DNA of 64,000 nt from a virus (Duplodnaviria; Caudoviricetes): the IMG/VR virus record IMGVR_UViG_3300031994_000067, positions 15,082-79,081 of that record, one strand, 5' to 3'. Numbering within the stretch: position 1 is the stretch's first letter; each line of letters begins with the position of its first letter. The position numbers and the translations under genes are program-made. Below are positions 8,912 through 60,260 of this stretch, one piece after another. The notes under the pieces were generated by a model, which saw nothing but the letters and a program-made list of their open reading frames with translations, did no database searches and had not been told where the DNA came from.

Positions 8912-8992
8912 GAGGCATCTCCTCCTTTAAAATGTGAAACGATTTATCCGTAATCGAAGTCATAGTGACCTCAATCACGGATATAATATATA

Positions 8993-15045: not shown

Positions 15046-15441
15046 TCATTTTTTCTCATCTTCGGAATCATCTTTCGACTTATGAGCCGAATCCTTGGTG
15101 AGAGTTGTATGTAAATTCTTCAGACCAAGAAGCGTTTTCTTAAGTCCGTTTATTGTACATATTCGGCTGAATAACTCCCAGCCAATAACTCCGAGTATGA
15201 ATGTGATCGCTATCTCCAAATCATCGTTCAAATAACCTCTTGCCGCAAATATTAAAAAGGTGCTGAGAGTTGTTGATACAAAAATTCGTCTAATTTCGAT
15301 CTTAGGTCTTGTTCCAGAAACTGTATCGTATATATCTTTAACAAAAGCACCAATCATAGCTATCAAGAAATATGTTGCACCATCCAGAAAGAATATTGAA
15401 GATGTTTGGAGTTTGGCATACAATATTTCCATTAAATTCAC
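15046..15441 (-). CDS. Small membrane protein, holin-like
   Basis: Two to three hydrophobic segments and a charged C-terminal tail in 131 aa. Confidence 0.45.
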   Translation of the reverse strand: MNLMEILYAKLQTSSIFFLDGATYFLIAMIGAFVKDIYDTVSGTRPKIEIRRIFVSTTLSTFLIFAARGYLNDDLEIAITFILGVIGWELFSRICTINGLKKTLLGLKNLHTTLTKDSAHKSKDDSEDEKK

Positions 15442-22145: not shown

Positions 22146-22185
22146 CCATTCCTTTCTTTCGCGTAATTTTAAGATTATGTCTTAC

Positions 22186-25100
22186 TCACGAAGCTCCCAG
22201 CTTAGTTAACGTCTCTTTGAAAGTAAACTTATCCGAAACATTTCGTTTCGAACTTCTTGTGAGAGACAATCTTGGGAATTCCAAATTCGTTCGATTAACC
22301 AAAAATCTGCTAATGTCAGTAGATAATCCGATATCAATGTCATATTCCACCTGAACTGATTTCATAGCGTCACGAAATTTCTCAGATACTGTCGAAATAA
22401 CGTCTTTTGCAATCATTCTGTAGATGAAACTTTCGATATGAAGTTTTGAATTCGAATAAACTCCGGCGATAATCTTTTCGATTTTCTCCGTTAAGTCAGC
22501 TTTAACCGACTGAGTTATCGATAATTTCCATTCATCTGTATCAGCAAATTCCAGTATTTGAGATGTAAACCTCGTAACGTTCACATCAATATCATTCGCA
22601 ATCGTTCTTGTGGATTTCAGTAACGCATCAATATAACGCGTTCTGTTAATAACATCAAATTTCTGAATATCTTTCTCGAAAAAGACTCCGGATACATCTC
22701 TACAATAATCCAGTGCTTTCAGTAGTTTATCTCGTTTAGCAGATAATACCTCGATATAAGTCTTATTCATTATCTGAAAGATGATCAAAAAGTTCTCTGC
22801 TAAATCAATCTTATCAACTACAGATCTTCTGATTAATTCGGAAATTCTATCGTGGTGAGCCCTGTAAAAATCCGTTTTGATAATAGAATCGATTGATTCA
22901 GAATCTATCTTATTTATCAGTTTAACTTGTGAATCAGAGAGAAATCTGACAAATAAATCTCCGAGTTTTCCGATAAATTTGCTTACGGTTGCAGTTATCT
23001 TATTAACACTCGGACATATCAACTCGACGCTATATACAGTAGATTTGAGGTAACTTGAAACTTCTGGAACCAATTCAGTCATAAGTTTCATATGATCACT
23101 TTCGGAAACGGAACCATTCACGTAAACCAATCTATCGATAAACTTCATTACTTCGTCATCGATAAACCTAATAGATGATTCCCATTTATCCATCATCTTA
23201 GGTATAAGATTGGTCTTTATTTCATCGCGTACAATCTGAATTGTTTCATCGTTGATATTGATCTTCTCGTCGATAATATATCGAACCATCATATCAACTA
23301 TCTGATCGACAATAGTAAGTCTATGTTTGAGAATATTCTTAACCAAAGTCGTAAAAGCATCCGAATACTGATTCAAAATCCTTACCATAATCGTCATGCC
23401 AACGTCAGTCGTCATAGTTTCACGATTCACCAACTTCTCGCGAACCATAGCGACAATCATGTGGAGAAAACACTCTTTAAGATTCAGCTTGTTATCGTGA
23501 GTCATATCGACAGAAGCATTGATATCATCGGAGTATTGATTGAGAAGCTTCTCCATTTTTTCTGCAAGTATTGTGACATCTAAACTTTCTGAAAAGATAA
23601 ATTTATCGGAGAAATATATCTTCGTCATGAAATCAGCAATAACATCACACAACCGAATTCTGTCAGAATCGGGAATACTCATAAGAATACTGAAATTGTC
23701 TGAATATTCTCCAAGAATTTTAGTACCAGCATCTGTTCGGATACAAGCAGACAAATCGTCTTTGATAGAGATATCACCATTAATCAAAAATTCGCCAACG
23801 AAATCAGAAATTTGCGTAACAATTTTGATATAGTCTTTGTTATTCGGGTCAATGTCTAATGCCAAAGTATCAGCGTATTGATTAAGAATGTGCGAGCCTG
23901 TTCCTCCCATATCAATATATTCTGCAAGACTATAATCAAGATTTAACTTGGACGATACGCTCGCAACCACGTAAGAATACAAGTCTTCTAAGAATTGAAT
24001 CTTCTCTTTATCACTGAATTCAATATCGACACCAGATATCGCATCATAATAATACTTAATAAAACCATCGTACATCCACCAAGTTATATCTGTTTGCCAA
24101 ATCATGTCGAGAATCTTTAACATATTGAAATATCTATCGTCGAATAAGTATAACAAACCTGCATGAGACAAATCGACCGTATATGACTTAAAGAAATTGA
24201 TCAGTCTCAGAAGAACAACTACCAATGCAGATGCATCAACTGCTGTATGAAGATATTTCAATTCGTTACATAAAGTTTCAAGTTTATATAACAGATGAAT
24301 CATTATCTCATCAGTGTCTTTAACCGATGTAGTGTCGAAATCGTCCACGAAGAAATAGAGTTCAATATCGAGGTCTTTCAACAAATCAAAATAATCCGTC
24401 GCATAACTTCCATCATTTTTCTGATAGACTACCTCTTTATCTTCGACTACAAGAATCGAGTTATACAGTTTTTTGTAAGCTCTGTATACTTCAATATCTT
24501 TAGTAGATGCCATCTGCTCAACAATGAAATCCTTAAGAGCTTTGATATTATGGTAGATTCTATCAACGTCTTTATTGCTGGTGACTGTGAAATTCAGCAT
24601 ATATTGAATGACATCTTCATCAAGATATTTGCTGTCGACTACATCAGCAATTATCTGAGCCATATCTGCATGAAAATTGAATCCATATACTGAAGCTACA
24701 GCGGCAGGTCTCAACGGAATCTCTCCTGTGAAACCATAACGTTTACAGAAAAACGCACATAAAAAGATTATGAACGAATATAAATCGTGTGGTCTTGGAG
24801 AAATTTTTGGTGCTATCAAATACACCTTACGAAACTCATCGTTGTTATCAATTACCATTCTGAAGAAATGATTTATCTCGTACATCATTGCCGTGATCTT
24901 AAACATGATATCGATACTGATATACTTCGATTCTATGTAATTCAGACCAGCCGTATAAATCTTTTCACGAAGTTCATCATCGTCAACCCAGTAAATATCT
25001 CCCGAAGTCATATCGGTATATTCCATTCGATTAGTTCTATCAACCAATGCAGTGTTAATATCCTTAGACTTCAAATTGACTCTCTGGAAGTATATCTCAA

Positions 25101-40057: not shown

Positions 40058-40666
40058 TCAGTCTAAGTAATGTTTGCGTATATCGTCAAGTTTCGGTAAG
40101 ATGTCTTCGCAACAATTCTGTCTGGCAAATTCGGCAATCTTTCTATACTCTCTGTCGATATTTGATTGAGCCGTCTCTTTGGAACAGTTATTAACAATGA
40201 CATTGCGATATGAGAACAGCACAGTTCCGAGAAAATCGTGTAAGAGTTCCACAATTCGTATAACTTCGTGTTCACAGTGATCCCAGTTAGCAGTTTCATC
40301 AAACGGATAAAATGCGACGTGACTTTCAGCCATTTTCTCGAGAACGTCTTCCGCGAATTCCAGCTTAAAAGCCTCAAACAAATCATTGCCGTTAAGATAG
40401 GTAATCAATTTCGCACAGCGTTCTTTCTCATAACCGTTTTCTCTAAGAACGATATAGAGAGTTGACAGATTATAGATTCTATCATTTCTACTGAAATCTC
40501 CGATGAAGTCATACATGTGACGTGCAACCAACTCTTTGACATTAAAATCCTCGGCATGAAGCCGTTGATAAATGTTAAACACGGCATCGTTTATATCGAG
40601 CTGGTCAATCCGAGTTTTTTCTGCTTGTAACACATTAGCAAGTTCTTCAGTGTCCATCTTTATCAC
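40058..40666 (-). CDS. Hypothetical protein
   Basis: 202-aa ORF coupled to nrdG, with GGAGAG RBS. Confidence 0.6.
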
Positions 40667-41129
40667 TCTCCTTTCTTAAATCGATAATACGTTGATTAGA
40701 CGAACCTCTCCATTGAAGATTTAAGTCTCGCAATTCTAATATAAATGGTCCATCAACCAACACATCAATTTCTTTCAGAAGATTGTTAATAGCTGGGTCT
40801 TTCTTCGCTCGCAATTCTTCAAGAGTATATCCGGTATAACACCACACGGTTCCACCGAGCTTATGAACCCTGCGTGCTAAAATTAACATCGCTTTGGGCT
40901 GCTCCATCGGTTCACCGCCAGTAAGCGTTATACCGGACAACAACGGATTGCTGCGATACTCATGAAGTATAAAGTCTGTACCGGTAACAAAACCACCAGA
41001 CGCGTCCCATGTATGTTGATTGTGACATCCTTTGCAGTGATGAGAACATCCCTGCACAAACACGGCCAATCGGATCCCAGGTCCATCAACAAAACTCTCC
41101 TGAACTATACCGGCACAGCGAAAATTCAT
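40647..41129 (-). CDS. nrdG: Anaerobic ribonucleotide reductase activating enzyme (radical SAM)
   Basis: [17 protein letters not shown] (CxxxCxxC), [17 protein letters not shown]. Confidence 0.95.
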
Positions 41130-41845
41130 ATGAATTTCTCAGTCCTTTCAGGATTGTACCTATCCATGACAAATTTACGTTTGCCACAGTGCATTTTACC
41201 TTCCGGGCAGAATCCGCGATTGTTATAACAGTTCGGACCTACTCTGTTGAAAATAGACGGAAGAACTTCACGACACTTCTGAAGCATATGGTCAGCCAAT
41301 TCATGTATCTCATTCTGTGCACGATTGCAACACCGTAGCCCAAAAATATGGATAAGATTTCTGGCGTTGGTTGTCATGATAAGCTGACTCGTTGTGGCAT
41401 TCGGTAACAGATATCGAGCATCCTCTTTCGGAATATTGAACTCATCGATGAGACGCTTATAACACGCGGCGATTGTATCGAGAGCATATTCGAAAGTCAT
41501 CTTAGCTTCGGTATTGTCTCGGATCGATTCTGGAGCAACATAGTTGTTCAAAAGATCGTCCACCTCTACATATCGCTGACTACGCTGATGGAAAGTGCAA
41601 AGTCTGTGACGAACAAGCTGATGAGTAAGCGCACGAGACACGTCTTCAATCAAGAAAGTGAACGAAATGTGTTCAAGAATGGAATCGTGATGATTATCCA
41701 TTGCAACCTTAATCATTTTATCGATCGTTTCCTGATTAATTTTCTCGAGCATATCGCTGGCTTTATCCGATGTATAACATACTCTAGCCGCAGCAGCGAT
41801 AAGCTCTTCCGCATTTTCAGTATGACGGATCAATTCGACTTTCAT
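41126..41845 (-). CDS. thyX: Flavin-dependent thymidylate synthase
   Basis: [22 protein letters not shown] and ARYLLPNA motifs. Confidence 0.95.
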
Positions 41846-42873
41846 TCTTCATCATCCTCATCGGCTTCATCTTCGATGTACTCGGCAAAACAACTCGGTT
41901 CTATTTCGTTAAACACTGCGACTTTGTAAAGCTCGATGATTGCATCTGCAATACTGTCGTTATTATAACCGAAAGCTGAAACCGGCAAAAGAACAACACC
42001 GTTGTTGGAATGAAAATCGTAGTTTCTCGGAGTTAAGAACTCGCAAGCGCGATGGATGGCGTCCTTGTGTTCGAGGATATCGTCACCTTCGTGTTTAGTT
42101 TCTTTGCGTTTTTCAAGACGTTCAAGAATGTGATGTTCATCCAGAAGAAGCAAGAAATTATAAGGAAACGGAACGCCATTATCCATTTCATACTTATAAA
42201 TTCGCTCGTATTCATCGCGCATTTTGTTGTTGATAAACCGCTCTTTAAAATCACCAAACGGTTCATCATCATAACTCGGGTACATTCTCCACCAAATCTG
42301 TGTCAATTCATCACCGGCGCAATAATCATAAAAAGCATACAGCGCAGAGACATGGTGAATGATATTGCTGTAAGAGAAACGGTCAAACACATAAACCGTG
42401 TCAGGCTCAAGCTCTGCGGTTCTGAAATACTCAATCCGGTTTAACGCGTAGAGACTCATGACGAAACGGATGTCTTTAACAAGGCGTTCGAGACGACCCA
42501 TTGCGATAGAGACCCAATCAATCGCTGTTTCACCAGGAACCGAACTGAGAAATCTCGCATAATTCCCGTATTGACCGTTGAGATACGCTTTAATCATAGT
42601 GCCGGACGGAAGGTCGTATTGAGGGAAATCGACGCGTTTAACTTTGATACCGTCAACTCCCAAACCTTTCTTCTCAATGAGTTGAGTGATCGAACCCTTC
42701 CCCGTGCAATCAACGCCTTCAACCGCCAAGAAGCGATTATTATCATTGAACATGTCCTTTGTCAGAATAATGTCCGTCTCAGTATCCGGCTCATCATCCA
42801 AGGAATAGTGTCCGGGTTTCAACCAATTAACTTCACCTCTCCGGATTTTTTTGTTAGCGACTTGTAAAGCCAT
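41842..42873 (-). CDS. tmk: Thymidylate (dTMP) kinase
   Basis: AVEGVDCTGK P-loop, FPQY and DRFSYS motifs; adjacent to thyX. Confidence 0.85.
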   Translation of the reverse strand: MALQVANKKIRRGEVNWLKPGHYSLDDEPDTETDIILTKDMFNDNNRFLAVEGVDCTGKGSITQLIEKKGLGVDGIKVKRVDFPQYDLPSGTMIKAYLNGQYGNYARFLSSVPGETAIDWVSIAMGRLERLVKDIRFVMSLYALNRIEYFRTAELEPDTVYVFDRFSYSNIIHHVSALYAFYDYCAGDELTQIWWRMYPSYDDEPFGDFKERFINNKMRDEYERIYKYEMDNGVPFPYNFLLLLDEHHILERLEKRKETKHEGDDILEHKDAIHRACEFLTPRNYDFHSNNGVVLLPVSAFGYNNDSIADAIIELYKVAVFNEIEPSCFAEYIEDEADEDDEE

Positions 42874-45503: not shown

Positions 45504-48500
45504 TTAATAGAGATCGTCTTTAGGTTTGAAGCTTGGATTATCTTTTTGATACATCTCAAGCCACCTACGTTTTAATTCGACGATAACTTTATTTCCGTAC
45601 ATTGTGCAAAAGATTGATGGGGTCATACGTGCTAACACACCCGCTGGTGCGAAAGTTGACGAAATTTCTTCATCAGGTCTATCTATTGAATATGGTTCTT
45701 GTCCTTTTGCGATGAGCTCCAGTAATCTTCGCATAGGTTCGCTAATCCTATGCCGTTCTATTATGAACTGCTACATGTCTCCATGTAAGCTGAGACTATA
45801 TCATCATCTCATAGAGATGTCTCCCATTTCACTCCGCTTGGAGCTACGCCTTTCGGCTAGTCGTTGAACGTTCTAAAAAATCTCGATTCCTTCATCAATA
45901 TAGACAGTATTTTGTACAATAGAAAGATTGGTGTCAACTATTTTCTTCCTGGTTCTATACAATTTTTTCGCAACTTTTTTAGGAACACCTTTTTCAATAA
46001 GAGTTTTAACAATCTTCTTCTTAGACGTTCCACAAATAATTGCTCTGTCTATAGAGTTGAAATAAGTTCTATAAACCACAAACGAATTCGCAAATTTCAA
46101 ATTCAAACCTTCAGTAAGATATTTATAAACACTTTTTGACTTAATTTTTGATATGGTATCATTAGATACACCGGTTAAATCAGAAATTTCGCTCCGCGTA
46201 TAATCACCAGTTTCTAACAATTCGATCACTTTCTTTATATTGGCGATCTTATATTTGTTATTATGGTGATCTTCACCTTTAGGGAGAGATATGAGATTAT
46301 TATCATATGCGTGCTGAATATTCTCAGATTTTGTACACCATTCAAGATTTTCTAATCGGTTATCTGTTTTAATACCATTTTTATGATTAACATCAGGAAA
46401 ATTTTCGGGATTTGGTACAAACGCTTCCATAATCAATCTGTGAACAAATTTATGCACAGTTTTACGTTTGATATACATACTGTATCTCAAATACCCATGT
46501 TTACTTAAAAACGGTTTAAGAAAATGACCAGTTTTTAAGTTTTGTAATCTCCCATCTCTGTATATCATATAATTCGTGAGTTTGGAATTGACGTATACAA
46601 CTTTTCGATCGTCACTATCCACAAATATCACTTCTCTCATCAAAAAATTAAGAATGTGTTTAGTGGTTAATAGAAATGAGTCTTTAGTTTCGCTGCGGAT
46701 TGTCTCTATTCTCACTCTTTTTACCATACCTGAGTAGTTAATTCAGCCGCGTAATACATTACTGCTTACGTTTGGTAAATGAGACCTAACGAGATGTTCC
46801 CGCAATTAAGGAGATTCTAATATGTAGTCACCTACATATAGGGTCAGTATAGGCCGTTTACATACTTCCAAATATCTTCGCATAGGTTCGCTAATCCTAT
46901 GCCGTTCTCTTATGAACTGCTCTACGTCTCCGCAGAAGTTGAGACTATATCATCATCCATATAGGATGTCCCCCATTTCGCTCCGCTTGGAGCTACTCGC
47001 TTTCGCGATAGTCGTTGAACGTTCCTTCTATAAGAAGGCTTCGCTGCTGATTATCTTTATCTTACCGATTTTTACACTTGGTACGATAAGCATATCAAGA
47101 CTTCCCAGCAATTAAAGGAATTTTATCAATGTTGATTTCTCAACAAAGCCACTATTTGTGTTAATGGCTGTAAAATGGACCAATTTATCCAATAACTTCA
47201 CATAGGTTCGCTAATCCTATGCCGCTACTTAGCTGCTGCATGTCACCATGCAGATGAGACTATATCTTCACCTCAGAGAGGTGTCTCCCATTTCGCTCCG
47301 CTTGGAGCTACTCGCTTTCGCGATAGTCGTTGAACCTTCCTATTACAGGCTTGGCTGCTGATTGTCTCATAATGAGAGTTTCCAGCAATTAGAGAGATTC
47401 ATATCCGTGATCACTCACGGATCGGGCAATAAATTTACCTACATCAAGATAGTCCTTGTATTTGATGAAAAATTTAATCAGAACGCCAAGATGAACTTTA
47501 ACACCCATGATCTTTCCATCTTCTCCACCGTCAACAACCACAGCCTTTTCACTGAATTCCAGACCGTTGACATCTCCACCACGTCTCTTAATCTCAGCTT
47601 CCTGTGCTCTAAGTCTGGCAAAATAAGCATCGACGATCTTCTTCAAAGACGGAGAAAGTTCTTTAGGTTCGACGGTTGTGTATATTCGTATATCTTCAAT
47701 CACTCCAGCATACTTGGATTTAACCGGAATTTTACCCATAAGCGTGATTTCTTCTTTCAACTCTTTACCAATGTTAGCCAACATCTTGTTGAATGAAGCG
47801 TCCTGAGATGAATTATCGTATATAATCAGTGGGTCATTTACATTTACCTGCTGACCTATTTTGACGATGTAATCAACATTCGAGTTCATTCCAACTATAG
47901 CTTCTGCTTCCATACATACTTCAGTTCCTAACTTCTTCGAAAGTTTATCCGTAACGAAATTACCATCTTCGAAGCTGGTATATGTAGCCATGCAAGCCAC
48001 TTTAGTAAGAGTTCCTATGTTGAATCGTACACCTTCAGCCGGAGAACTCGAAAAGTATCTTTCGTTATATGCAAGAACAGAATTTTTCTTAAAATAAGTT
48101 CCCGGTTTAAGTGCGTCTGTATTCATCTTACTGGGCAGGTAAAACCCACCTGCTCCATTTTTGACGACTTTTGAATTAGCGTTAATAACTTGACGTTTCA
48201 ATTTTCCTTGGAGATTCTTATATTCGATTACAATAACCCCGGTCTTATCGTCTCGTGAAATTACCTTACCATCATCTTTCGCTACTATACAGAAATCAGT
48301 AGAAAGATGATAAGGTAAAACTTTTTCAGCACCATTTGATATTAGTACCGGAGACGCATGTTCTACGGGGATGATGTGCTTGCTTTGTTTGACAGCCATT
48401 GAGACACGAATCTGATCATCCCGATTCAATCCTGGGGTAAGCATTTCAGCCATACTAAAAATATTAGAATCATCCAAATCTCGTTCATCCGAAGGTTTTA

Positions 48501-51500
48501 CATACCCACGACCATTGACCACGTTCGGGTTTATAGTCAAACTTTTGGTGATGCCGACATTAGCATCTGGAGATTGCGGAATTGCTATAACTCCAACCAT
48601 GCTCTTGTCGTAACATCTACGTTTCAATGTGTAGGCCTCTTTCAAATTTGTCCCGCTGGGTGTTGTGTTCACATAGGTTCGCTAATCCTATATCGCTCTT
48701 TTAAGAGCTGCTGTGAGTCCCCCCACAGACCAGACTATATCTTCACCTCTATGAGGTGTTCCCTGTTTCGCTCCGCTTGGAGCTACTCACTTTCGTGATA
48801 GTCGTTGAACCTTCCTTCTAATATAGAAGGCTTGGCTGCTGATTGTCTCTATTCTACCGATTGTTACACTTTGGTACGGTAGACCTAACGAGAGTTTCCA
48901 GCAATTAAGGGAATTTTTGTTATATGATTACTCATATAAAGAGCCTCAGTTAACCCTTGTCGGTCAAAAGATGACTTTTCTCAACCTCTACAATAGGACT
49001 GAGTTCAGAAACATCTTCAACAACTTGTGACTGCATTATATCTTTGATAATCGTTCCTTGTGGAATCGAAATCTTCGTCGGATTCTTATTTCCCGAGGTC
49101 ATTCTGTATTTACCGTATGCCTCAGAGATCGCTTTAAACGCATATGCATAAGCCATTTCATTACTACGGATTCTATAGTTTCTCATATCGAGTTCGCTGA
49201 TGTAACTATTATCAGCAAGCAATTTATTTCCTGCTAATAACAACCCCACAAAATCAGTAGGATAATTCAAATCCTCTAGTATCTGAAGAGTTACTGGGTC
49301 AATCATCCAATCATAAAAGTTATCAAGAGCGTTAGCTAACATCCTGGTACCAAACAGTACATCGAATAAGCTAACGTATACATCCTTCGCGTCCATCTCG
49401 GCATACTCAAATCCGCGAGTATCAACCATTCCAAATCCGTTCATCAATAACGAAACTTCTAACGGGAATTTGTCATATACAAGATAACCATCTGAGAATG
49501 GTATAACTCCCTTGTTGACAGCTTCCATTTCTCTAAGACGCGGTCTTGTATCTGAAAATTGGAATTTGACTTCAGCTTTACGTAATACAGTGGTTAAACC
49601 CTCGCAATAAGATAAAAGTAATACAAGTGGAATATCTTTCTTCATTATCTTACAGCGAGTGTACATGAACCGTCTTCCGGATTTAATATCTGCGAATTTC
49701 TGTATATCGATTGAATCTCCAAGATATTGGATAACGTGATCACAAATTCCCATTATTGGTGTAGAATCAACGTTTTCATCTTTGATTACTTCGGGGGTTT
49801 CGACGGATTCTTTGGAAGCAATAAATCGGGAGAGATTAGATCCAATTTCTCCAGATTTTTTTCGAATTGTATTAACGAATCTTTCAAACGGTGTATAAGT
49901 AAGAACTTTACCATCTTCGGAGAATATACACCCTTCAGACTTTTTGATTATCTCAATTTGAGTGAGTCGTTTATCACCATACAGTTTATCGATGAACTCC
50001 AAGTCTGCATCCGTAAAATATCCGTTTCGAATAATTAGTCGTCTTTCATCTTTTTTTCTAGACACGAGATTCATTCCATAAATTTGTCGATTACCTAGCA
50101 TTATCATATAGAAGAAATCACGCATTCTTTTAGTATATTTATCAGCCGCCTGTTCATATGTGAGAAAAGGACCTGAAGTATCGTTAAATATACCTCCATA
50201 GCTGAATATATAAACTCCGGACTTACGACGAACCATTGTTACAAAGTGTGAGACACATTGCATAGTTGCAGATGAACCGTTCTCTACATTAAAGAATCGA
50301 GCAAATCTGTAGATTCTAGCAGGGATGTTATTTCGTTTAAAGAAATAATATGCAAATATTGCTTGGTCAAAACAATTTCCGATTTTTTCTCGTAAAATAT
50401 CTTCTGGCCAATGAACTTCACCTAACCATTGTACTGGTCCATAATTGTTGCGTTCTTTGTATTCCGGCCACTTGATGTGATTAGCTTGAAACCAGGTGAC
50501 CAAATCTTCGAAAGTCTTAAATTGTTTGCAGAAATCATCAAGAGTTTTGTATTTCTTAGTATAAACAGAAATCTTGTAATCTTCTTGAACTGGTTCCAAT
50601 TCTCCTGATTTTATCAACTCCAGAGCTTCCTTCGCAACCTTCTTTTCTTTCGGAGTCTGGTATTGCTTAGACCAAGCAAGCAACTTGTAAAAAACTCCGG
50701 TAATCTTAGGAATTCTGATAAATCTAAAATCTCTAGAGAAGAAGTGAGTAGACCAAAGATTGTCTCCACCATCCGCATACAAGTAATCTTTCTGGACGAT
50801 GTCTTTATTCAGATACTTGTCGAGATGTTCGGTTTCGGAGTATTCTTGCACTGACCATTCTGTACTATCTGAGACTGGAGCGTCAAATCCTTTATTTGGA
50901 CTTGATAACAGTAATACTTTGTAGAATTCGGTAACTTGTCCAGCTGCATCATACCAACTTTTGTACGGTCCAGTGATAATTCCATGACCAGGTCCGATGT
51001 AAAGCCAAGCATAAACATATTTTCCACGTTTAAACAACGGGAATATATGACCAGCTGAGGTTCCGTTTTCGAGTCGTATGGTGAACAGCGCCATACGATG
51101 TTCAATATGCCGTTTCTTGAAAAAGAAGTGCATCATGACAGACTGGTCGAGACAATTCCCTTTACGTTCTTTAACCAGTGTGTCAGGCCATCTCATTTTA
51201 TCATTATTGGCTTTATCGTTCCAAACGACCTTGTTGGCTATAAACCAATTCATCGCATCTTCTGGGGTTTTACATTCGTCACAAAATTCCTTAAAGTTTT
51301 TAGCCTTAGAAGATTTGAATTGTTTAGCCGATTCTTCTATCACTTCCAACATTTCCTTGACTTTTGTAGGAGGCGGTTCCGTCAAGAAACAACACCAATG
51401 AAGTTTACCAGATTCATCAAGTTCCATTTCCTCGTAAAAGTTTTCGATACCTTTCTCTGTTTCTTTGATGATAGTTCGTTCATATGGTTCAAAATCGGTT

Positions 51501-54500
51501 CGTCTTTTCGGTATTGCACCAAACAACTTCGTATTGTAGAATAATTCGAAATGTAGATGCGGGTGTGATGAATTACCAGTGTGACCAAGTTTTCCAATAA
51601 CTTGACCACGCCTCACATTATCACCTATTTTCACACAAATGGAATTGTCTACCATATGCCCGTACATAGAATAGAACTTACCATTTTCGTGTTCTAAAAT
51701 GACAGCGTTTCCGAATGCCATTATGTTTTCTTTAAATCCTTTTGTTAAATCGAAATGTTCTTTGTGAACATCAAACGTGCCGTCTTTATTGATTATTGCA
51801 ACAACCGTTCCATCATTACACGAGAGAACATCATTTCCCAATGCGCCAAAAGTAAGTGAAGTGCCTTTGAATGCAATAAAGTCCACCGCGTCCAACTGAT
51901 CTTTTAATACCACAGCAATATCTCTAATAACCAATCCAATTGCTTCACAGACTTTCGGTATAGAGCGTACTAAACCAAAAAACGTATCTCCATATTCATC
52001 TTTCGACTTATTAATCGTCGACATTATAAATCCGGAGTATGCATTAATTGTGTTTACGATATGGCTGTTAAAACAGAGAAGTCTCTCACCGGGATTTAAC
52101 TCGAAATTATCCAAATCCAATGGAATAATGTTTTTCTTCCCATTACTGAAGAAACCTTCCTCAACTACCTCAGCCGATTCTTTAACATGTAGCGAATCCT
52201 CAGTGATAAAGAACGCAGTGTCGAATTTTCCGGTCTCGTTCATTTCCATCTTCGAGTCATACGCTGTTTCAAAACTCGACTTTTTAAATGCGTCTATTAT
52301 ACCACCTATTTTTGTACACTTAAAGGGGGCGAATCCAGTATGGTCTATACCCCATCCATAATCTTTCCAAGTAGTACCGCTTGTTTCAAAATGCAGATGA
52401 GGTATTGTACAATCGCCTGTATTCCCAATTCGTCCAATGATTTGACCTCGACGAACCTTGTCACCTTTCTTAACAGTAATCGAATTGTTTGCCAAATGAG
52501 CATAAAGTGTGACAGTCTTATTGTCATGCGCGATTATTACAGTATTTCCTTGAGGACCTACTGTATCGCGTAAACGATTAACGATGCTGGCTTTTCCGAT
52601 ACCATCTTGAACTTCAACGACGGTTCCATCGTCACACGATAACACTGGGAATCCATCCAAATCCGGTGTTAGAACCTGTTCTCTATTTACAGACACTATG
52701 TCCATAGCCGCTACAGATTTTCCATATGTCATGTATAAGTCAAAACCTTCCCATCCCATGTTTGTTAGAAAATCGTGTTTTTCACCGTACTTATAAGATT
52801 TATAAGCGGTTGAGATGGTTCTTCCTACTCCTTTAAGAGCGGTAATTGTAGCATGAGGATTAAAACAAAGAACACGTGTTCCAGGACTGTTATATTTGCT
52901 TAAATCAACTGGAATTATCTTATTACCAATAACCCGATCGTTGGACTCTTCAACGATTTCCATAGAATCCATGTGTTCAATAAACGAATCGATGTCTGTA
53001 GATTCGGTAAAAAAACTAAGCGCCTTGTCTTTCACTCGCCGTATACCGTAACGAATGATGACTCCGAGAATAGCGGTGCGAACTCTGAGATATTCGAAAT
53101 ATTTCTTCTGTTCAACAGGTTTTATTTTGCCCTCTTTGTACTCTTTAAACACAGCGTCTGCTTCGGGAAAATATTTCTCACTGAACTCATCTCTGTCTTT
53201 TACCGGCGTATTGTAAAACTTGTCCCAGATCTTCTGTTCATCTTCCGAATAGATGTAATAACCAGATTTAGTCTCGTATCCGACATTTTGCTTTCGCCCC
53301 CATAATTGAAGCAATTCATTCATATCATCAACATACTGGTCAACAGAATCAAATGGACCTTCGATAACGTTTCCGTTTTTCTGCCTGTAAGGTTGTGGAT
53401 CGAATTCATACCAACGTCCATCTTTCTCGAACAACGTTATGATATGACCGCAATAACTCTGTTCGGTTTTACCAGTCTTATCATCATGATCTATAAGAAT
53501 AACGTATGAAGAAACTTGCTTGTTAGGTATACCCTTTCTATTGCAGAAATAATGCATGAACAGAGCATGATCGTAACAGTTACCAATTTTATGCTTGATA
53601 ATATCGTTCGGCCACCTAAATGGGTGATCAGAACCGGTTTCACCAGGAGGCCAAATGACATGATTCTTTGAATACCATGTGGCAACTTCTTCTGGTGTTT
53701 GAATGTATTCACAAAACTCGTCGAAATCTTTGTATTTTTGAGTATATATTGAAGCCTCTTCAATGACTTCCATCGACTCTAAAGATATCCCCTGATGTGG
53801 GTCGATTCGCAGTTCTTCGAACTCCCATATAGGGTACCAATCACCTTTTTGTGCCAAAGAATCTTGGTCAACTTTATCAACCTTTTTCTTGTAAGGTCCA
53901 TCATAATCGGCTGTGAAGACAAAAGTAATTGCGCCAACGTACTTTAATCCAATAGGCCACAGTATGCGTTTATGCCACTCCGGAATTGTTTTCGGGTCAT
54001 ATTTGACGATATAATACTTGCCAGTGTAGTGAACGTTTTTAACTTTCGCCAATATCTCTTCGTTAACCTCACATTCAGCTTGCTCCGCCAACGATTTGTC
54101 AGGCTCGACCGAACCACCTGGAAGTTTGTACATTGAACCATAGTGTGAGATTTCTTTCTTCTTTTCGAAGAATACGCAACTTGTACCGTTTACTTCTCGT
54201 TTAACGATGGTTTCTACCCTGACTCTGTATTGCTGACCGTCAATAAGATATACTCCGTTTGCTATTCCGTCATTATCATAAATGAATTCCATATTCTTCT
54301 TAACGTCAGCATACGTGAGTTTCTTGTCGATATATTGATGAGATTCTTCCACAGCATTTTCGTTTACAGCTTCGATAGAGACTGGCTGGTATGATGCGAA
54401 GTTAGCTTCGAGATTATCAGTAGTGAATCCATTCTCTTTATCGTTAAGAGTCCGCATTCTCATACCTACCTGAGTATCATCAAAGCAGTATGACCCATCA

Positions 54501-55666
54501 CCTAAATCTTTGACAAAGATTCTTGTGGGGTAGCCAGGAACTGTATCACCGGGAAGTATTTCTGTCGTAACTGATTCGACAGTACCTTTTGGGTTTGTAG
54601 GTAGAAATTTCATAGGGTCATTTTCGTTCACCCGAATAAACTCATGAGAATCGTTTACATATTTCAACAAATCGTGTTGAAGTCTCTTGTCAGAAATACT
54701 CGCTTCTACTTCCATATTATCGTCCTGATCAAATATCCAATAATTCAATTCAGTTCTCTCACCAACAATTTTTTCCACCCTCGGTCTGAAAAACTCCATC
54801 TCCATACGTACAATTTCATCAGGTTTTGTGTCGAAATAGGATATGATTTCTCCGGAGGGGTGTTTATCTTGTTCAGTAACAAACCGAAATGCATAGTATT
54901 TATTGTTGTATTTCCAAAACGCAAATAAGTGTCCAAATGAGCTTTCGCCGTTTTTGTACAAAAATTTCATCCATGCGATTTCCCCGAAACATTTTTTCTT
55001 TAAATTTCGCGACCGCTTACAAATTTCATACACAGCTAAAGCTATATCAACACAATTAGCACGTTTGCTTTTCTCGATGTCTTCCAAAGATTGAATCGGA
55101 TTCGAATTGTTGTTTCCGTTTGAACTTTCTGTGGTTTTGATAACCTCATTTTTCATCCAATTCATGAAAGTCCATGGTGTTTTGAATTTTTCACGCAAAA
55201 AGAGCCTGACACCTTTCATGCATTGATCATACTCGTCTTTGCTCATCTCACCCATTTTCTTTCTGAATTCTATCTCAGATATTGGAAAAAAGACAGAGCC
55301 ACATGAAAAACTCGGTTTTGTAAACCCATAGCGGTTCCAGTTCTTGATAGTGTAGTTGTATTCGATTACTTGAGCACGTAGTTTGCTTTCCTTATCTTTT
55401 TCAACCGAACTACACATCAAAAATCTAAGATCGCCGTTTCCTAAATCGATTATGATTCCCCAACGAAACTTCATATCGTCCGCAAAATTAAAAAAAGGAA
55501 AGCCTGCGTGATAGACTTCCCCAACTTTCACAGACGAAAGATTCACCGATTCGGAAACAGCGTCGTTCGAATTTGCATATAATGCGTCGAGTTCCTCGTC
55601 GTCATATATCGGGTTTGACGCTTCCAGTAACGAAACCCATTCTTCATCGTAATTATCCAGACTCAT
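45504..55666 (-). CDS. rpoB: Cargo polyprotein fused to the RNAP beta C-terminal half (probably virion RNAP). Five exons: 48953..55666, 47437..48660, 47164..47189, 46853..46868, 45504..45719; about 2730 aa
   Basis: Spliced product reads DKG/PSGTN (fork loop 2), SPDANVG, AVKQSKH, KVVKN, DVG/DKL..TAM/KYVNG/ELI and ARMTPS. Upstream ~1950 aa hold MazF-like, four Cys-His papain-like, Nudix and two M23 domains. RBS GAGGTG and AACA-N6-TA (55689-55700) precede ATG 55666. Confidence 0.85.
45720..46852 (-). mobile_element. Group I intron D with an HNH endonuclease; 5' splice site appears non-canonical
   Basis: TAATTGCGGGAAC, AATCCGCAGCGAA, TTCAACGACTAG and GATATAGTC; 3' end gaagattactG with P9.0 UC:GA and AG:CU. 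5' boundary inferred from protein conservation. Confidence 0.8.
45873..46640 (-). CDS. Intron-encoded HNH homing endonuclease (NUMOD4-like + HNH + HTH)
   Basis: [29 protein letters not shown]. Start uncertain; the in-frame extension to 46727 overlaps the intron core. Confidence 0.88.
   Translation of the reverse strand: [255 protein letters not shown]
46869..47163 (-). mobile_element. Group I intron C (ORF-less, 295 nt)
   Basis: Core motifs present. P1 AGCCAU:GUGGCU with a U.G pair; ends gaagatatttG with P9.0 UC:GA and AA:UU. Confidence 0.85.
47190..47436 (-). mobile_element. Group I intron B (ORF-less, 247 nt)
   Basis: Core motifs present. P1 GGU:GCC; P10 UUUAUU:GAUAAA; td-like P9 CTGCATGGTGACATGCAG. 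Splicing restores the conserved GDK. Confidence 0.9.
48661..48952 (-). mobile_element. Group I intron A (ORF-less, 292 nt), apparently ending in A instead of G
   Basis: Starts TAACTGAGGC, like T4 td. P1 AAGGGU:GCUCUU; core motifs present; 3' end tgaacacaacA precedes CCCAGC. Confidence 0.82.
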
Positions 55667-56189
55667 CTCTTTCACCTCTTTCTTCAAGTAATTTGATGTT
55701 CCATTTATCATCGAATATCGATTCTGCATTCTCAGATTCCCTAACTTCAATAATCATGTCGCCGTTTTGCATGACAAGATTCCGTTGCAATGAGTTGGAA
55801 TAATTATCATCTGAAGTTCCTTCCCAAGGCAATGCAATGTAGCAATTCGAATCGTCTTCAAATATCAAATCGACGTGAGTAATATCACACCATTTCAGCA
55901 AATGATCAAAGGGTTTCATTGGTTCATTTATATCCAACCAACGCTCTATGACATTTGCCGATTTCTTAAGTATGCAGAACATCCCTTTTTTCGCTTTGAA
56001 CTTTTCGTAAAACGTTTTGTGAGGTTCGTAATACGAGTAATTGCGTACGATTTCAAACAAATCAAAATCATGGAGGTCATCGGATGTAAATCGAAGTGTT
56101 GAGCATCCTTCAGTAACGAAATCGATAAACTTAATACGCGCTTTCTTCATCATTATCAAACTCCTTTCGAGAAGATAATATATATCCAC
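55653..56189 (-). CDS. Early-type hypothetical protein
   Basis: AAAGGAG RBS before the internal MMKKARI start; TATATATTAT at 56175-56184. Confidence 0.65.
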   Translation of the reverse strand: MDIYYLLERSLIMMKKARIKFIDFVTEGCSTLRFTSDDLHDFDLFEIVRNYSYYEPHKTFYEKFKAKKGMFCILKKSANVIERWLDINEPMKPFDHLLKWCDITHVDLIFEDDSNCYIALPWEGTSDDNYSNSLQRNLVMQNGDMIIEVRESENAESIFDDKWNIKLLEERGERDESG

Positions 56190-56347
56190 GATTTACTTTA
56201 GAATACCTTTGATTATCGTTCTGTCTCATACGTAACTTCCCTGTTAAAAAAGGACTTCTTTCAATTAAGATCGCTAACGCAATTAGGTAATCTTAAACAA
56301 ATTAAGACCTTTATAAAAAAATGCTACCCCTACATAAAAAGTAAACA

Positions 56348-56555
56348 GGGACATTGGGGAGGGCGGTCGGGAGAGATGTGACACTAGAGAGAAGAAGAGA
56401 GGAAGGGAGAAGAGAAATAGAAAAGGAATAAATAAATGAAACAAAGGTAATTGATTAGATAAAAAAGATTTTGATAATGTAATTAAAAGAAAGCGAAGAA
56501 AAAAGAGAGAAGCGAAGAGGAATGGAGGGGATGGGGGGTTATAGGGGGGAAGGGG
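56348..56555 (+). other. Strand-biased purine-rich tract bounded by two G-quadruplex-type motifs
   Basis: GGG-ACATT-GGGG-A-GGG-CGGTC-GGG (56348-56371) and GGGG-AT-GGGGGG-TTATA-GGGGGG-AA-GGGG (56527-56555). Confidence 0.7.
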
Positions 56556-56681
56556 ATCTGTACTACGAAACCTCTGAAAAACGTCAAAAAAGTTGAAAAC
56601 AGAGACAAAAATCGTCTCTGTATAAACACGCTTTTTACACCATTCACAGAACTATAACTACGCAAAGAAAGGAGAAACAAA

Positions 56682-59600
56682 ATGATTACGATAGATAAAC
56701 TGAAAGACTTCAAATTGTATAAAGAACGATTTATTGTTCCAGTAGACAAAGAAGATATTCATAAATCAAGTTGTGTCATTCTGTTTACAAGACACCAAGA
56801 CTCAATCTTATCAGTTTTAAACAATTCATTCATGGATGATAAAAATCTCTTCAAATATGTGTACAGAGAAAGAGATATAACCTTAAGACTTAAGACTGAT
56901 AAAATCGTTGAAAAAGGAACACGAATGCGTAATGAATACTACGAAATGTGTAGAGAAAAACTCAAACTCTCCGGTATTATTGCTACATCAAATCTTGGTG
57001 AAAAGAATTTCTACTTCGATACATACAGAGAACATGAACTCTTCTTAGACAATACCAAGAAGTTAAATAAATTAACGAAAACTTCAGAATATCTTACAAT
57101 ACTTAATGCAAATTTCTTTGATATACCGATGATCAAGGAATATAAAGTCAAGACGGTATTGATTCAATTAGAAGACTGGATTGATAATATTTCTGAAGAT
57201 AATCCGGCAAGTTTGTTACATTATGCAAGCTGGAAACTCTTCGATAAATTCAAAGATCTCGGGGATATAGATTTTGTATTTATCACCAAAGAATCAGTGT
57301 TTAAGATGAACCCATCAAGGTGTACGAACACTTCCCATGTCGAATTCTTGAAAGCACTGAAAACGTTAAACAAGACTATCGTATTACCAGATAACGAAGA
57401 TGGCAATGTTACTGATATGATTAACTCAGAGATTGCTATGGATGACGATGATGATTCAATTGATGATGAATTAGCTGAAAAAATTCAAAAGCAGGAAGAA
57501 CAGGGCAAGACATCTGATGAAATTGCTGAAGACATAATTAATGACCCTGAAGAAGCTAAGAAAATTGCGGATAAGGTTCTTGAACCCATCATTATCAAGA
57601 AAGATGCAATTTCTAAACGCGACATGGAACTCAGAGAAAAACAAAAAAGTCTTAAGATGAATGGGATTACTATGAGTGAGTTGCATGATAAAAAGGTCGA
57701 TTATGCTGAAATTCCGGTAAATGATGTATCTGGTTCTGTCAATACTTTGAATAAGAATATCACAAGAGTTCAATTCGTCAATTTTCCTGAAACGTACAAT
57801 GAGCATTACTATCAGAAAGACATTATGTCTATAGCTGATGCGATGAAAGATAAATCGATTCCTGTATTTGTACGAGATATGAAAAAGGAAGATACTTCGG
57901 ATTCTCTTAACCAAAAAGAAACTTACACTTTCTATCTTGAAGATTCTAACCGCGGAAGACATACATTGAAATTTGATATGCCTAAATTCATCGAAGGAAA
58001 GTATATGTATCTCAACGGTCATAAAAAGCAATTCAATAATCAAAGAATTGCAAAACCGCTGATTAAAACCGGTCCTGATACAGTGCAGGTGGTTACCAAT
58101 TACAATAAGATTTTCATGACTCGTCATGGTGAAAAAGTTGAAGCATTATATGAGAAGTTTAAAGAGTTGGTTATTAGTGACCCTAAACACTTCTCATATA
58201 AACGTGGTGATTGTTCCAGATTGAATACCGAATATAAAACGACGATCGAATACGATACCTTGGCTAAACAATTTGCGGAGATCACTGTTAAACCTCCTAA
58301 GGGAGATAAACTTCACCTTATATTTAGCCAACCAAGGTTAAAGGAAATCTGTTGTACAAAACTCGGAGCTGAAGGACTTTGGAAAAAAGTTCAAGATGAA
58401 GGTACTCAGATGGTTGCTGGGTATTATGAAGGATTGAAGAAAAGTTCTTTATATATCTTGGATTTGAACGCATCCGAAATAACTCCATCTGTTACAACCG
58501 AATCTGTTGGTGATGCATTTCCGAGCATGGACTACATTGAAAATTCGAATAATGCAATTATGGATTCATTAAACAGAACGCAATACAATATTGATATTGC
58601 TGAATCAAATATTGAGAAAGTAATTGAATATTGTCGATTAGAACCTTCAGAGATTTACTTTGATATTCAAACAGAAGATGCTGTGCATGAAGGAATTCTT
58701 TCATCAGTATGGAAAGGAATAAAATCTCTGGTCAAAAATCTTCTAAAGTTAGTTCTCAAAATTTGGAATGGAGTAATGTCGATATTTAAGTTCATCTTCA
58801 AGAAAATATCAAATTTCTTCAGCGGTAGTTCTTCAGGTGTTTCTAGCACCAGTTTTGTTCCTCAAGAAGTTTCGTTTATCTCTTTAGAATCGGCTAAGGT
58901 GGAAACGGTCGAGGTTAGTTCTCAGAAAGAACTTCAGGAAATAATTGTAGAACATATTGAATCTATCAGCCGCGAAATAAGAGAACGGAGTCGAATTCAA
59001 ATAGAAGCTACCAAAGAAATGGAAGAATTAGTATCTAACGAGAAAGCTGTTCAGGAAAGAGTCGTAATAGGTGGAGAGTTAGATTTACGAGATGAATCTG
59101 GACCTGGTAGTGGCGACGACTACCTGTTTTCATTTCCCAGCAGGGATATGGTTTCATCTAAACAACTCGTGACTCCAAGCAGATTTGATAAAAAGTCGTT
59201 CGATCTTATAAGCAAAGCTAATGATATGGCAAAAGCATATAATGATTGGATAGATTTGGATATTGAAAGAATAATGCGAACTGACTATAAGCCTCAACCA
59301 TCTGGTGCTACTAATCCGGATGAATCTGGCAACGAATTCTTTGTACAGATTGCGGTTGCAGGTTTATTACAAGAAGGATGGAAAGAAAAAGAAATTTCTG
59401 ATTATATTAAAGGCAAATTCTATCGTGTACCTGATAACCCGGAAGATATAAAACGACTTGTAAACATCAGACTGAACTACAATAAAAGAATTTGTAGCAT
59501 TTTGGAAAACATGCTCCGAATAAATTACTCAATGCTTGGTGTAACAGTTGAAACTTCCAATCAGATTATTGAGCGTTTACGCGAAGGAGATACTGAAGCC

Positions 59601-60260
59601 ATTAGTCGTGTGAATGAAATCATCGAAAAGAATAAATCCAAATTTGTCAAGGAATTGATACATAATGGTTTTCATCACAATTATTTGGATTTTACTCCTA
59701 TTGGTGGTGGTATATGCTATTATACACATAATGATTTGGCTAATATTAAAGAAATTTTCCTCGGTAACACCGAACGATTTTTTAGTTTAGCATTACGATT
59801 CGATTATGTGATATTAGGACACGGCGGTGTAGGTCGAAAAGGTTCTGTTAAGGACAAACTTTTTGATGAAAATTCAGAATACAGAGAACTTGAATATGCT
59901 CGTTCCGATATCGAATTTGACGTATCCAGTGGAAACCCTGTAAAACGAGACCCGAGTTCATTTACAGAAGATGAAATGAAAGAATTGCAACGAATACGTA
60001 CTAAGTTGAATGAAATTGAAGATCGAGCAGGTATCCGATATTGGAGTATACAACCAGTTGCTACACAAAATTTCCCATCTACAGATGATGTGAACGAACT
60101 TCTCAGGAATGTTATCGAAGAAGGAAGAATGGCAGGAAAAACTCGTATTAAGATTTTTCTACTCTGCTGCAATGGCGGTCATTTTGTTCTTGACGATAAT
60201 GTCCGTAATGCTAAAGGAGTAGCCATTGTCTGTGCGTCTAATAAGATGCTTGCTGATTAA
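56682..60260 (+). CDS. rpoB: RNAP beta N-terminal half (probably virion RNAP) fused to a ~590-aa C-terminal cargo
   Basis: KFDMPKF..GKYMYLNG.KK..NQ...P..K..P..VQ..NYNKIF corresponds to the beta F.ING.E.V..Q region. After VTTESV the sequence becomes a head-protein-like amphipathic helix plus an HG...CCNGG domain. CACA-N6-TA at 56645-56656. Confidence 0.78.
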   Translation: MITIDKLKDFKLYKERFIVPVDKEDIHKSSCVILFTRHQDSILSVLNNSFMDDKNLFKYVYRERDITLRLKTDKIVEKGTRMRNEYYEMCREKLKLSGIIATSNLGEKNFYFDTYREHELFLDNTKKLNKLTKTSEYLTILNANFFDIPMIKEYKVKTVLIQLEDWIDNISEDNPASLLHYASWKLFDKFKDLGDIDFVFITKESVFKMNPSRCTNTSHVEFLKALKTLNKTIVLPDNEDGNVTDMINSEIAMDDDDDSIDDELAEKIQKQEEQGKTSDEIAEDIINDPEEAKKIADKVLEPIIIKKDAISKRDMELREKQKSLKMNGITMSELHDKKVDYAEIPVNDVSGSVNTLNKNITRVQFVNFPETYNEHYYQKDIMSIADAMKDKSIPVFVRDMKKEDTSDSLNQKETYTFYLEDSNRGRHTLKFDMPKFIEGKYMYLNGHKKQFNNQRIAKPLIKTGPDTVQVVTNYNKIFMTRHGEKVEALYEKFKELVISDPKHFSYKRGDCSRLNTEYKTTIEYDTLAKQFAEITVKPPKGDKLHLIFSQPRLKEICCTKLGAEGLWKKVQDEGTQMVAGYYEGLKKSSLYILDLNASEITPSVTTESVGDAFPSMDYIENSNNAIMDSLNRTQYNIDIAESNIEKVIEYCRLEPSEIYFDIQTEDAVHEGILSSVWKGIKSLVKNLLKLVLKIWNGVMSIFKFIFKKISNFFSGSSSGVSSTSFVPQEVSFISLESAKVETVEVSSQKELQEIIVEHIESISREIRERSRIQIEATKEMEELVSNEKAVQERVVIGGELDLRDESGPGSGDDYLFSFPSRDMVSSKQLVTPSRFDKKSFDLISKANDMAKAYNDWIDLDIERIMRTDYKPQPSGATNPDESGNEFFVQIAVAGLLQEGWKEKEISDYIKGKFYRVPDNPEDIKRLVNIRLNYNKRICSILENMLRINYSMLGVTVETSNQIIERLREGDTEAISRVNEIIEKNKSKFVKELIHNGFHHNYLDFTPIGGGICYYTHNDLANIKEIFLGNTERFFSLALRFDYVILGHGGVGRKGSVKDKLFDENSEYRELEYARSDIEFDVSSGNPVKRDPSSFTEDEMKELQRIRTKLNEIEDRAGIRYWSIQPVATQNFPSTDDVNELLRNVIEEGRMAGKTRIKIFLLCCNGGHFVLDDNVRNAKGVAIVCASNKMLAD

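Follow-up and report, generated by a model that had tools for sequence, protein, structure and literature searches.

We analysed a 64,000-nucleotide (nt) window of viral DNA (positions 15,082 to 79,081 of the IMG/VR virus record IMGVR_UViG_3300031994_000067; Duplodnaviria, Caudoviricetes), in which a single uninterrupted minus-strand frame, open across 6.8 kb (55750-48950), joins an array of enzyme-like modules to a piece of a virion RNA polymerase (vRNAP) beta subunit. The window is part of a metagenome-derived record of 79,081 bp with a CheckV completeness estimate of 32%. Its genes matched those of AR9-like jumbo phages of Bacillota at a protein identity of only 25-39%, and a megablast search with 13.5 kb gave zero matches in the phage collection, so the phage is without a close cultured relative. 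We take the window to be part of the genome of a jumbo phage that is AR9-like and uncultivated.

The frame runs from an ATG at 55666, the likely start, to 48953 and encodes 2,238 amino acids (aa) in exon 1; base composition was even along the whole gene. Residues are numbered on the translation of the open reading frame (ORF), designated P0001, in which Met29 corresponds to 55666. We scanned the entire protein and ten sub-segments against Pfam and PHROGs, and residues 29-380 were folded on an alignment of 37 homologues (predicted local distance difference test (pLDDT) 88.7; predicted template modelling score (pTM) 0.84). Along the minus strand, the following features were found:

55673-55679, minus strand: Shine-Dalgarno sequence AGAGGTG, 6 nt ahead of the ATG at 55666, read from the sequence
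55538-55666, minus strand: acidic N-terminal leader, residues 29-71, modelled as disordered (pLDDT ~50), with V-x-E-S at its end
55187-55537, minus strand: MazF/PemK-fold domain, residues 72-188, from fold and profile matches
54611-55186, minus strand: transglutaminase/papain-like Cys protease module 1, residues 189-380, with the Cys of NCxD and the His of GH kept
54353-54598, minus strand: small conserved domain of ~80 aa, residues 385-466, with no Pfam family match, kept in the relatives P0003-P0006
53756-54343, minus strand: Nudix module, residues 470-665 (Pfam PF00293; 23.8 bits scanned alone and 18.3 bits in the whole-protein scan, cut-off 21.1)
52946-53755, minus strand: Cys protease module 2 (Transglut_core), residues 666-935 (PF01841, 25.8 bits, cut-off 23)
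52157-52945, minus strand: Peptidase_M23 module a, residues 936-1198 (PF01551, 74.1 bits, cut-off 28.7), with HxH
51332-52156, minus strand: Peptidase_M23 module b, residues 1199-1473 (PF01551, 68.4 bits, cut-off 28.7), 35% identical to module a
50579-51331, minus strand: Cys protease module 3, residues 1474-1724 (Pfam 18.2 bits, below cut-off), a paralogue of module 2 (E 1e-18)
49781-50578, minus strand: Cys protease module 4, residues 1725-1990 (below the Pfam cut-off), a paralogue of module 2 (E 2e-23)
48953-49780, minus strand: vRNAP beta piece B, residues 1991-2266, to the end of exon 1 (PHROG 38251, E 3e-48)

The paralogy of protease modules 3 and 4 to residues 666-935 was established by blastp. 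The payload ahead of the beta piece comprised 1,962 aa and nine folded modules. A preliminary description of this DNA had proposed one continuous frame with a given list and order of domains; the Pfam and PHROG scans, the structure model and the fold comparison bore out the frame, the order and the length of the payload, and every listed module proved correct, although the list had omitted the small domain at residues 385-466. Polyvalent proteins carry 2-15 distinct effector-type domains per polypeptide, and with nine modules from five families plus one unassigned domain the payload array is, by its domain content, of polyvalent-protein character.

Fold comparison placed the MazF-like domain close to Staphylococcus aureus MazF (4mzm_A; VIA Z 13.0, root-mean-square deviation 2.8 A over 105 of 115 residues), with a Foldseek E value of 2.8e-5 and an E value of 5.4e-8 for the family-alignment profile against the MazF of the PDB. 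The family consensus aligned to MazF retains RP and ITS, where the payload domain has RW and CSS. No adjacent gene for a cognate MazF antitoxin was seen, and a predicted complex of the acidic leader with two MazF-like copies scored 0.01, which speaks neither for nor against a cis-antitoxin role. The leader itself is a candidate propeptide or capsid-targeting segment. Cys protease module 1 matched the CPR-C4 protease 7pjo (Z 11.8), vasohibin (9.5) and LapG (7.8), and the NCxD Cys and the G/S-H His were kept in all four protease modules. Both M23 modules carry HxH and a conserved CxNxH upstream of it, and their Pfam alignments begin at profile position 11-13.

Past residue 2266 the beta subunit is continued across group I introns, three of which scored 96-101 bits against Rfam RF00028 (gathering score 50). 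The exon model was guided by the intron-less homologues P0008 and P0010 and by gp104 of Listeria phage LPJP1, and it gave the following features:

48670-48952, minus strand: group I intron 1 (RF00028, 100 bits), the first three bases of which are the closing TAA of the ORF
47437-48669, minus strand: exon 2, beta piece C (flap region; PHROG 14872, E 2e-79), colinear with LPJP1 residues 961-1364
47190-47436, minus strand: group I intron 2 (Rfam, 101 bits)
47164-47189, minus strand: exon 3, 26 nt, from the spliced model colinear with intron-less P0008 and P0010
46869-47163, minus strand: group I intron 3 (Rfam, 96 bits)
46853-46868, minus strand: exon 4, ~16 nt, from the spliced model, with an approximate 3' boundary
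45720-46852, minus strand: group I intron 4, the 3' part of which scored 42.8 bits in Rfam (below the cut-off)
45504-45719, minus strand: exon 5, with the C-terminus of the subunit and the stop codon (tblastn to LPJP1 residues 1384-1434)

With exon 1 at 55666-48953, the five-exon model gave a stop-free product of ~2,731-2,734 aa whose C-terminus is colinear with the guides, and which contains a GDK...K catalytic loop that we take to correspond to K1065 and K1073 of Escherichia coli beta. The C-terminal half of RNAP beta that the preliminary description had placed in the long frame was therefore only partly there: the beta piece is in frame, but of the C-terminal half no more than the first ~276 aa lie in exon 1, and the remainder is reached by splicing out four group I introns. 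The 5' splice site of intron 1 is placed directly after the last Gly codon by the conserved P1 U.G pair. For its 3' end, the G at 48670 leaves a 3-aa insertion relative to the homologues, and the A at 48661 restores the homologue sequence with a terminal base that is not G; the terminal base of this intron may thus be non-G. Intron 4 carries an ORF for an HNH homing endonuclease at 46727-45873 (HNH_3 in Pfam, PHROG 59).

The four introns in 45504-48952 (minus strand) all interrupt the final ~1.7 kb of the coding sequence. Three of the introns are crowded into ~42 coding nt, and the micro-exons of 26 and ~16 nt lie in the GDK...K catalytic loop. A conserved, hairpin-bearing element of ~45 nt follows each Rfam-defined intron end, and the true introns are for this reason longer than the Rfam model.

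The beta piece and exon 2 matched the AR9 genome at one place only, inside g189. This gene, joined from six pieces, carries the annotation of virion RNAP beta subunit and is a late gene (PMC5312081). Tblastn of the beta piece to Staphylococcus jumbo phages and LPJP1 gave E values from 1e-43 to 7e-48. In Staphylococcus phage DC4 the match falls inside UFVDC4_00067, the sole RNAP subunit detected by liquid chromatography-mass spectrometry in purified DC4 virions (PMC10638138). AR9 g189 and the DC4 beta are the closest cultured orthologues, and by these matches the beta piece is orthologous to the virion, not the non-virion, RNAP beta. The virion identity assigned to this part in the preliminary description is upheld by the single AR9 match and by the presence of the DC4 orthologue in virions.

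LPJP1 gp104 spans pieces A, B and C in one ORF of 1,436 aa, and its residues 415-1434 are matched successively by piece A (from a plus-strand gene), piece B, piece C and the tail of the window. In AR9, Machias and LPJP1, piece A lies directly upstream of B in the same gene. Here it sits in a divergent gene:

56682-60260, plus strand: divergent gene of 1,192 aa with the N-terminal half of the beta-like subunit (piece A, residues ~240-578; PHROG 38251 positions 307-614)

The contiguity of A and B in the three phages and their separation here indicate that the subunit was split at the A/B junction, which the preliminary description had not noted. Both new ends at the split carry extra sequence: piece B has the payload, and the piece-A gene has a C-terminal extension of ~570 aa past A (58554-60260, plus strand; residues 625-1192), homologues of which exist. 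The parts of the extension are a linker that reads Thr-Thr-Glu-Ser, a helix of amphipathic or hydrophobic character, a stretch resembling a coiled coil, and a C-terminal domain of ~310 aa with an invariant His and Cys in 8 homologues. For this domain a caspase/C13-like protease lead (Atlas) scored 0.88, below the trust level; its AlphaFold pLDDT was 77, and a wide fold search returned only helical-hairpin matches (Z <= 6.3). Two relatives have the A gene in co-directional orientation, a few kb upstream. The extension occurs in some relatives and is lacking in one of these two (L004). Between the divergent beta halves, at 56320-56625, lies a long low-complexity tract that is pyrimidine-rich on the minus strand and contains C-runs; a hairpin follows it just upstream of the plus-strand A gene.

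Relatives were searched among 5.8 billion proteins and clustered at 90% identity. Eleven further clusters (P0003-P0013; 1,683-2,613 aa, 36-76% identity) all had N-terminal cargo fused to piece B, and they derived from independent ENA, Logan and JGI assemblies with contigs that include 92, 101 and 174 kb. The cargo differed by whole modules: some relatives carry a GNAT domain, an AAA_18 kinase or an unassigned domain, and the numbers of M23 and protease modules vary. About fifty further proteins (1,370-1,490 aa) were free of cargo, with A, B and C in one ORF, and another set (P0066-P0079; 2,000-2,577 aa) consisted of unsplit subunits with insertions of P-loop (kinase-like) and Nudix domains close to the N-terminus. 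In a maximum-likelihood tree of piece B, the twelve cargo-at-B proteins grouped with P0014 in one clade (support 100/99), and P0066-P0079 formed a separate long-branched clade (100/100). The presence of Nudix in the latter makes it cargo on the beta-like subunit in two separate lineages. P0014 is an unsplit, cargo-free beta with an acidic insert of ~25 aa bearing the linker motif described below exactly at the A/B junction, where the remaining unsplit proteins have no insert; it may represent an intermediate state. The tree and the module contents suggest that the cargo site arose once and that cassettes were exchanged afterwards. PDB sequence searches with the leader and MazF segment, with beta piece B and with P0014 gave nothing useful.

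These relatives also bear on whether the long frame could be an artefact of assembly or sequencing, a chimeric contig encoding a protein that does not exist. The record is metagenome-derived, and a near-identical contig is frameshifted in the gene: in this contig, of 59,450 bp, one A is missing at 51324-51326, which gives a product of 1,471 aa (P0002). Against an artefact, the junction and domain order were repeated in independent assemblies at 54-86% identity on contigs of up to 174 kb, and the composition was uniform over an open frame of 6.8 kb. With the same fusion in independent assemblies and in one clade, a chimera is excluded for practical purposes, and we regard an artefact as extremely improbable. 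Two expectations raised earlier, that the fusion is genuine and that homologous beta genes would carry variable cargo at the same site, were thus confirmed, the first by the recurrence of the junction in the eleven clusters and the second by the gain and loss of whole modules.

Signals for expression were read against the early and late promoter consensuses of AR9 (PMC5312081), with the following features upstream of the cargo gene:

55689-55700, minus strand: AACA-N6-TA, the consensus of AR9 late promoters, matched 21 nt ahead of the Shine-Dalgarno sequence
56168-56185, minus strand: ATATATATTAT-N6-G, a promoter motif of early (vRNAP) type, ahead of the small gene at 56153-55653
55653-56153, minus strand: small gene (PHROG 2349), the stop of which overlaps the start of the cargo gene by 14 nt

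The window held 75 matches to the late motif, fewer than the 107 that shuffles predicted, and so showed no enrichment; the match ahead of the cargo gene, to a motif of low information, is consistent with a late promoter and is a candidate for one. The early motif ATATATATTAT-N6-G had 10 matches against 0.78 expected, an enrichment from which the phage probably shares the promoter specificity of the AR9 virion polymerase and which fits a vRNAP-dependent early programme. Its matches lie at 8976, 9550, 12922, 37648, 43429, 44878, 45428, 56168, 62292 and 62474. A search for a terminator between the early promoter and the cargo gene gave two weak hits within coding sequence, no more than expected by chance. 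The late-type promoter and ribosome-binding site proposed for this gene thus held in part: the Shine-Dalgarno sequence and the motif match are there, but the late motif is not enriched and an early-type promoter also lies upstream.

Judged by synteny with L004 (20390-22589), the minus-strand genes at 40647-42873, downstream of the beta gene, include a thymidylate kinase-like gene, ThyX and a radical-SAM activase. These genes hint at thymine-containing rather than uracil-containing DNA, unlike AR9.

At each anchorable module start in the twelve proteins, a hydrophobic-x-Glu motif followed by Ser, Ala or Gly was found within a few residues upstream. In P0001, 7 of the 15 matches to this pattern fell inside the 173 junction residues among 2,238, a number reached by 0 of 2,000 shuffles (binomial p 6e-5), although the junction windows were drawn partly after the motif had been seen. 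P0001 therefore contains a motif like that of substrates of giant-phage or T4-type prohead proteases, x-x-Glu with a small residue, at domain boundaries and after its leader. The T4 protease gp21 cleaves at L/I-x-E, which the pattern also resembles. The payload linkers, Glu followed by a small residue, resemble the site where gp245, the SPN3US prohead protease, cleaves, A-x-E with Ser preferred at P1' (PMC10052503). The relative L005 has a gene for a T4 gp21-type protease (Peptidase_S77; 21625-22509) at a distance of 4 kb from the homologous gene.

The same motif recurred outside the fusion. Free-standing proteins of ~350 aa (~45 clusters, P0085-P0127) consist of an acidic leader, a MazF-like domain and a transglutaminase-like protease, and their leader closes with the V-x-E-S/A motif of the payload leader. 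Their layout is like that of capsid-targeted internal proteins, and they are probably head-internal proteins of phages.

Taking the linkers, the leader and the virion identity of the beta piece together, and reasoning by analogy with known head proteins, we give slightly better than even weight to a reading in which the precursor is packaged in the prohead and cut at its linkers, and the freed enzymes and beta are ejected with the DNA and then become active. The precursor would be synthesised late in infection and would enter the prohead with a pre-assembled vRNAP or by means of its own acidic leader. A prohead protease would cleave at the hydrophobic-x-Glu/Ser-Ala-Gly linkers and would leave free enzymes of ~25-30 kDa and a mature beta fragment in the head, which would leave it together with the DNA. 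After ejection, the cell wall or host proteins would be the targets of the M23 and possibly the transglutaminase-like modules, host RNA would be cleaved by the MazF-like module, and the Nudix module would hydrolyse a nucleotide-linked substrate. We infer packaging, cleavage and ejection, as well as each enzymatic activity of the cargo, and the transfer of the cargo into the host with the DNA is deduced from its being fused to a subunit of the vRNAP. A carrier role for beta with stoichiometric delivery of the enzymes, as the preliminary description proposed, is one possibility. The beta piece may equally be a passenger, since the cargo has a leader of its own and the combination of leader, MazF and protease also occurs free-standing.

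Besides the partly retrospective choice of junction windows, several observations weigh against this reading. The catalytic motifs of several modules are non-canonical: the MazF-like domain has RW instead of the RP of its family, a pattern search for the canonical HxxxD found it in neither M23 module, and in our own reading the Nudix box keeps E-x2-E-E with Cys for Arg and Lys for the first Glu. Some modules may for this reason be inactive. An early-type promoter without a convincing terminator would allow early expression, which fits a virion-only role less well. The product P0002 stops behind the second M23 module, so that the first seven modules are no longer joined to the two final protease modules and beta; from this 1-nt deletion, either the covalent link may be dispensable or this copy may be defective or mis-sequenced. 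Finally, a prohead protease (Peptidase_S77, PF03420) was not found in the 79-kb record, in a search that gave no match in control genomes either and is therefore uninformative.

The lack of a protease match in this record also bears on an alternative that we consider unlikely, in which the chain is packaged and ejected uncut as one giant multi-enzyme vRNAP subunit, like N4 gp50, with the acidic linkers as flexible spacers. The vRNAP beta of SPN3US functions with a long N-terminal region retained (PMC5694885), and N4-type vRNAPs are described as polyvalent single proteins of ~3,500 aa that are ejected whole (PMC5512222; PMC13434306). Against flexible spacers, Glu and Ser/Ala/Gly are kept at nearly every junction despite diverging flanks, and also after the free-standing leaders, and a 220-kDa appendage would seem to hinder docking with the separately encoded piece A.

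The four protease modules raise a further alternative, namely a cytoplasmic polyprotein that is cut by its own papain-like modules in the manner of RNA-virus polyproteins, so that the enzymes act unpackaged in the infected cell, in host shut-off, lysis or anti-defence, and the beta fragment alone enters the head. One chain does carry four Cys-His protease modules with intact catalytic motifs, downstream of an early-type promoter with no clear terminator. The linkers, however, have Glu at P1, which is not the preference expected of transglutaminase-like proteases. It is typical of prohead proteases (PMC10052503), and the same linkers occur in P0008 and P0010, which have few protease modules. 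The cytoplasm, moreover, offers the M23 peptidoglycan peptidases no substrate, and no signal peptides were evident. We judge such self-processing to be quite unlikely.

The non-canonical motifs in the M23, Nudix and MazF-like modules could also mean that the cargo is an overgrown propeptide or scaffold-like region, cleaved and cleared at maturation, with its enzyme folds as relics; propeptides normally exit the head (PMC10052503). The modules, however, are 54-72% identical across relatives, with the catalytic Cys/His and HxH kept, and they are swapped as intact units. Such conservation and exchange point to selection on folded, functional domains. Folded domains of 25-30 kDa would also be unlikely to exit through capsid pores, and a discarded propeptide is in our view very improbable.

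As to how the locus arose, we tentatively propose, as a possibility that we still regard as doubtful, that in this phage clade the A/B junction of vRNAP beta is a protease-cleavable insertion hotspot, in which the linker came first, the effector cassettes next and the gene split last. P0014, a single-chain beta with a short cleavable linker, resembles the proposed first state. With cassettes accreted at this site, a polymerase half and customisable enzymes would be made as one polyprotein, matured in the capsid and delivered together, and the MazF-type toxin would be harmless until its leader and neighbouring modules were removed in the head.

Several known systems combine some of these features. 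No description of a multisubunit vRNAP subunit with a multi-enzyme array was found in full-text literature searches or in a 2026 review of jumbo phages, which agrees with the earlier suggestion that the architecture is undescribed; that suggestion is qualified, however, by precedents in the polyvalent vRNAPs of N4 type, the HD-beta fusion of AR9 and the propeptide of 201phi2-1. Among the polyvalent proteins of phages and conjugative elements are N4-like vRNAPs to which peptidase, ART, lysozyme or RNase domains are joined (Iyer et al. 2017, PMC5512222). The payload is like these in its many unrelated enzymatic domains, its richness in peptidases and its link to a phage-encoded, DNA-delivered polymerase. 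The N4 group has a single-subunit polymerase of T7/N4 type with the extras around one catalytic module, whereas here the partner is a beta fragment of a multisubunit, cellular-type RNAP, the cargo lies at a gene split, and the linkers are protease-like.

Within the same phage group, the C-terminal vRNAP beta fragment of AR9, PBS1 and BpSp bears an HD phosphohydrolase domain at its N-terminus (Sokolova et al. 2020, PMC7598289; Iyer et al. 2021, PMC7824862), likewise an enzymatic domain N-terminal on a vRNAP beta fragment. That fusion involves one domain and a different beta fragment, in contrast to the nine modules (~1,960 aa) of variable content on a newly split piece found here. The orthologues AR9 g189, LPJP1 gp104 and DC4 UFVDC4_00067 align over A, B, C and the C-terminus at 31-39% identity, and the g189 gene also has group I introns, but each of the three is encoded by one gene (~1,420-1,440 aa) in which A adjoins B, and none of them carries cargo.

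For processing in the head, 201phi2-1 offers a precedent in the 275-aa N-terminal propeptide of its vRNAP beta, which the prohead protease removes by a cut at TFE-275 (Thomas et al. 2010, via PMC5694885). Removal of an N-terminal region after Glu at head maturation is what we propose for the payload; the 201phi2-1 propeptide contains no recognised enzymes and its cleavage was shown, whereas cleavage of the payload is deduced from its linkers. The vRNAP of SPN3US is assembled before prohead entry (PMC5694885). The T4 internal proteins and Alt (summarised in PMC5694885 and PMC5512222) are head-packaged effectors whose leader is cut after x-x-Glu and which are injected with the DNA; they are encoded by separate small genes, whereas the modules here are concatenated and fused to an essential polymerase piece. 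In Thermus phage P23-45 (PMC10770324), the covalent fusion of a cellular-type RNAP to a different virion protein serves its delivery, as it would here, but the partner is the tail tape measure rather than an enzyme array and the phage lineage is unrelated.

The cargo architecture extends known types of fusion and is not a new category. If the proposed reading is true, the polyvalent-protein principle would extend from single-subunit vRNAPs of N4 type to the multisubunit vRNAPs of jumbo phages, and an essential polymerase subunit would tolerate a new split together with a 220-kDa appendage. The locus and its relatives provide a catalogue of exchangeable, probably head-packaged effectors (MazF-like, Nudix, GNAT, kinase, M23 and transglutaminase-like proteases). 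They also supply a candidate code for cleavage by the prohead protease of AR9-like Bacillota phages, and they make the loading and release of non-structural proteins by jumbo phages accessible to testing.

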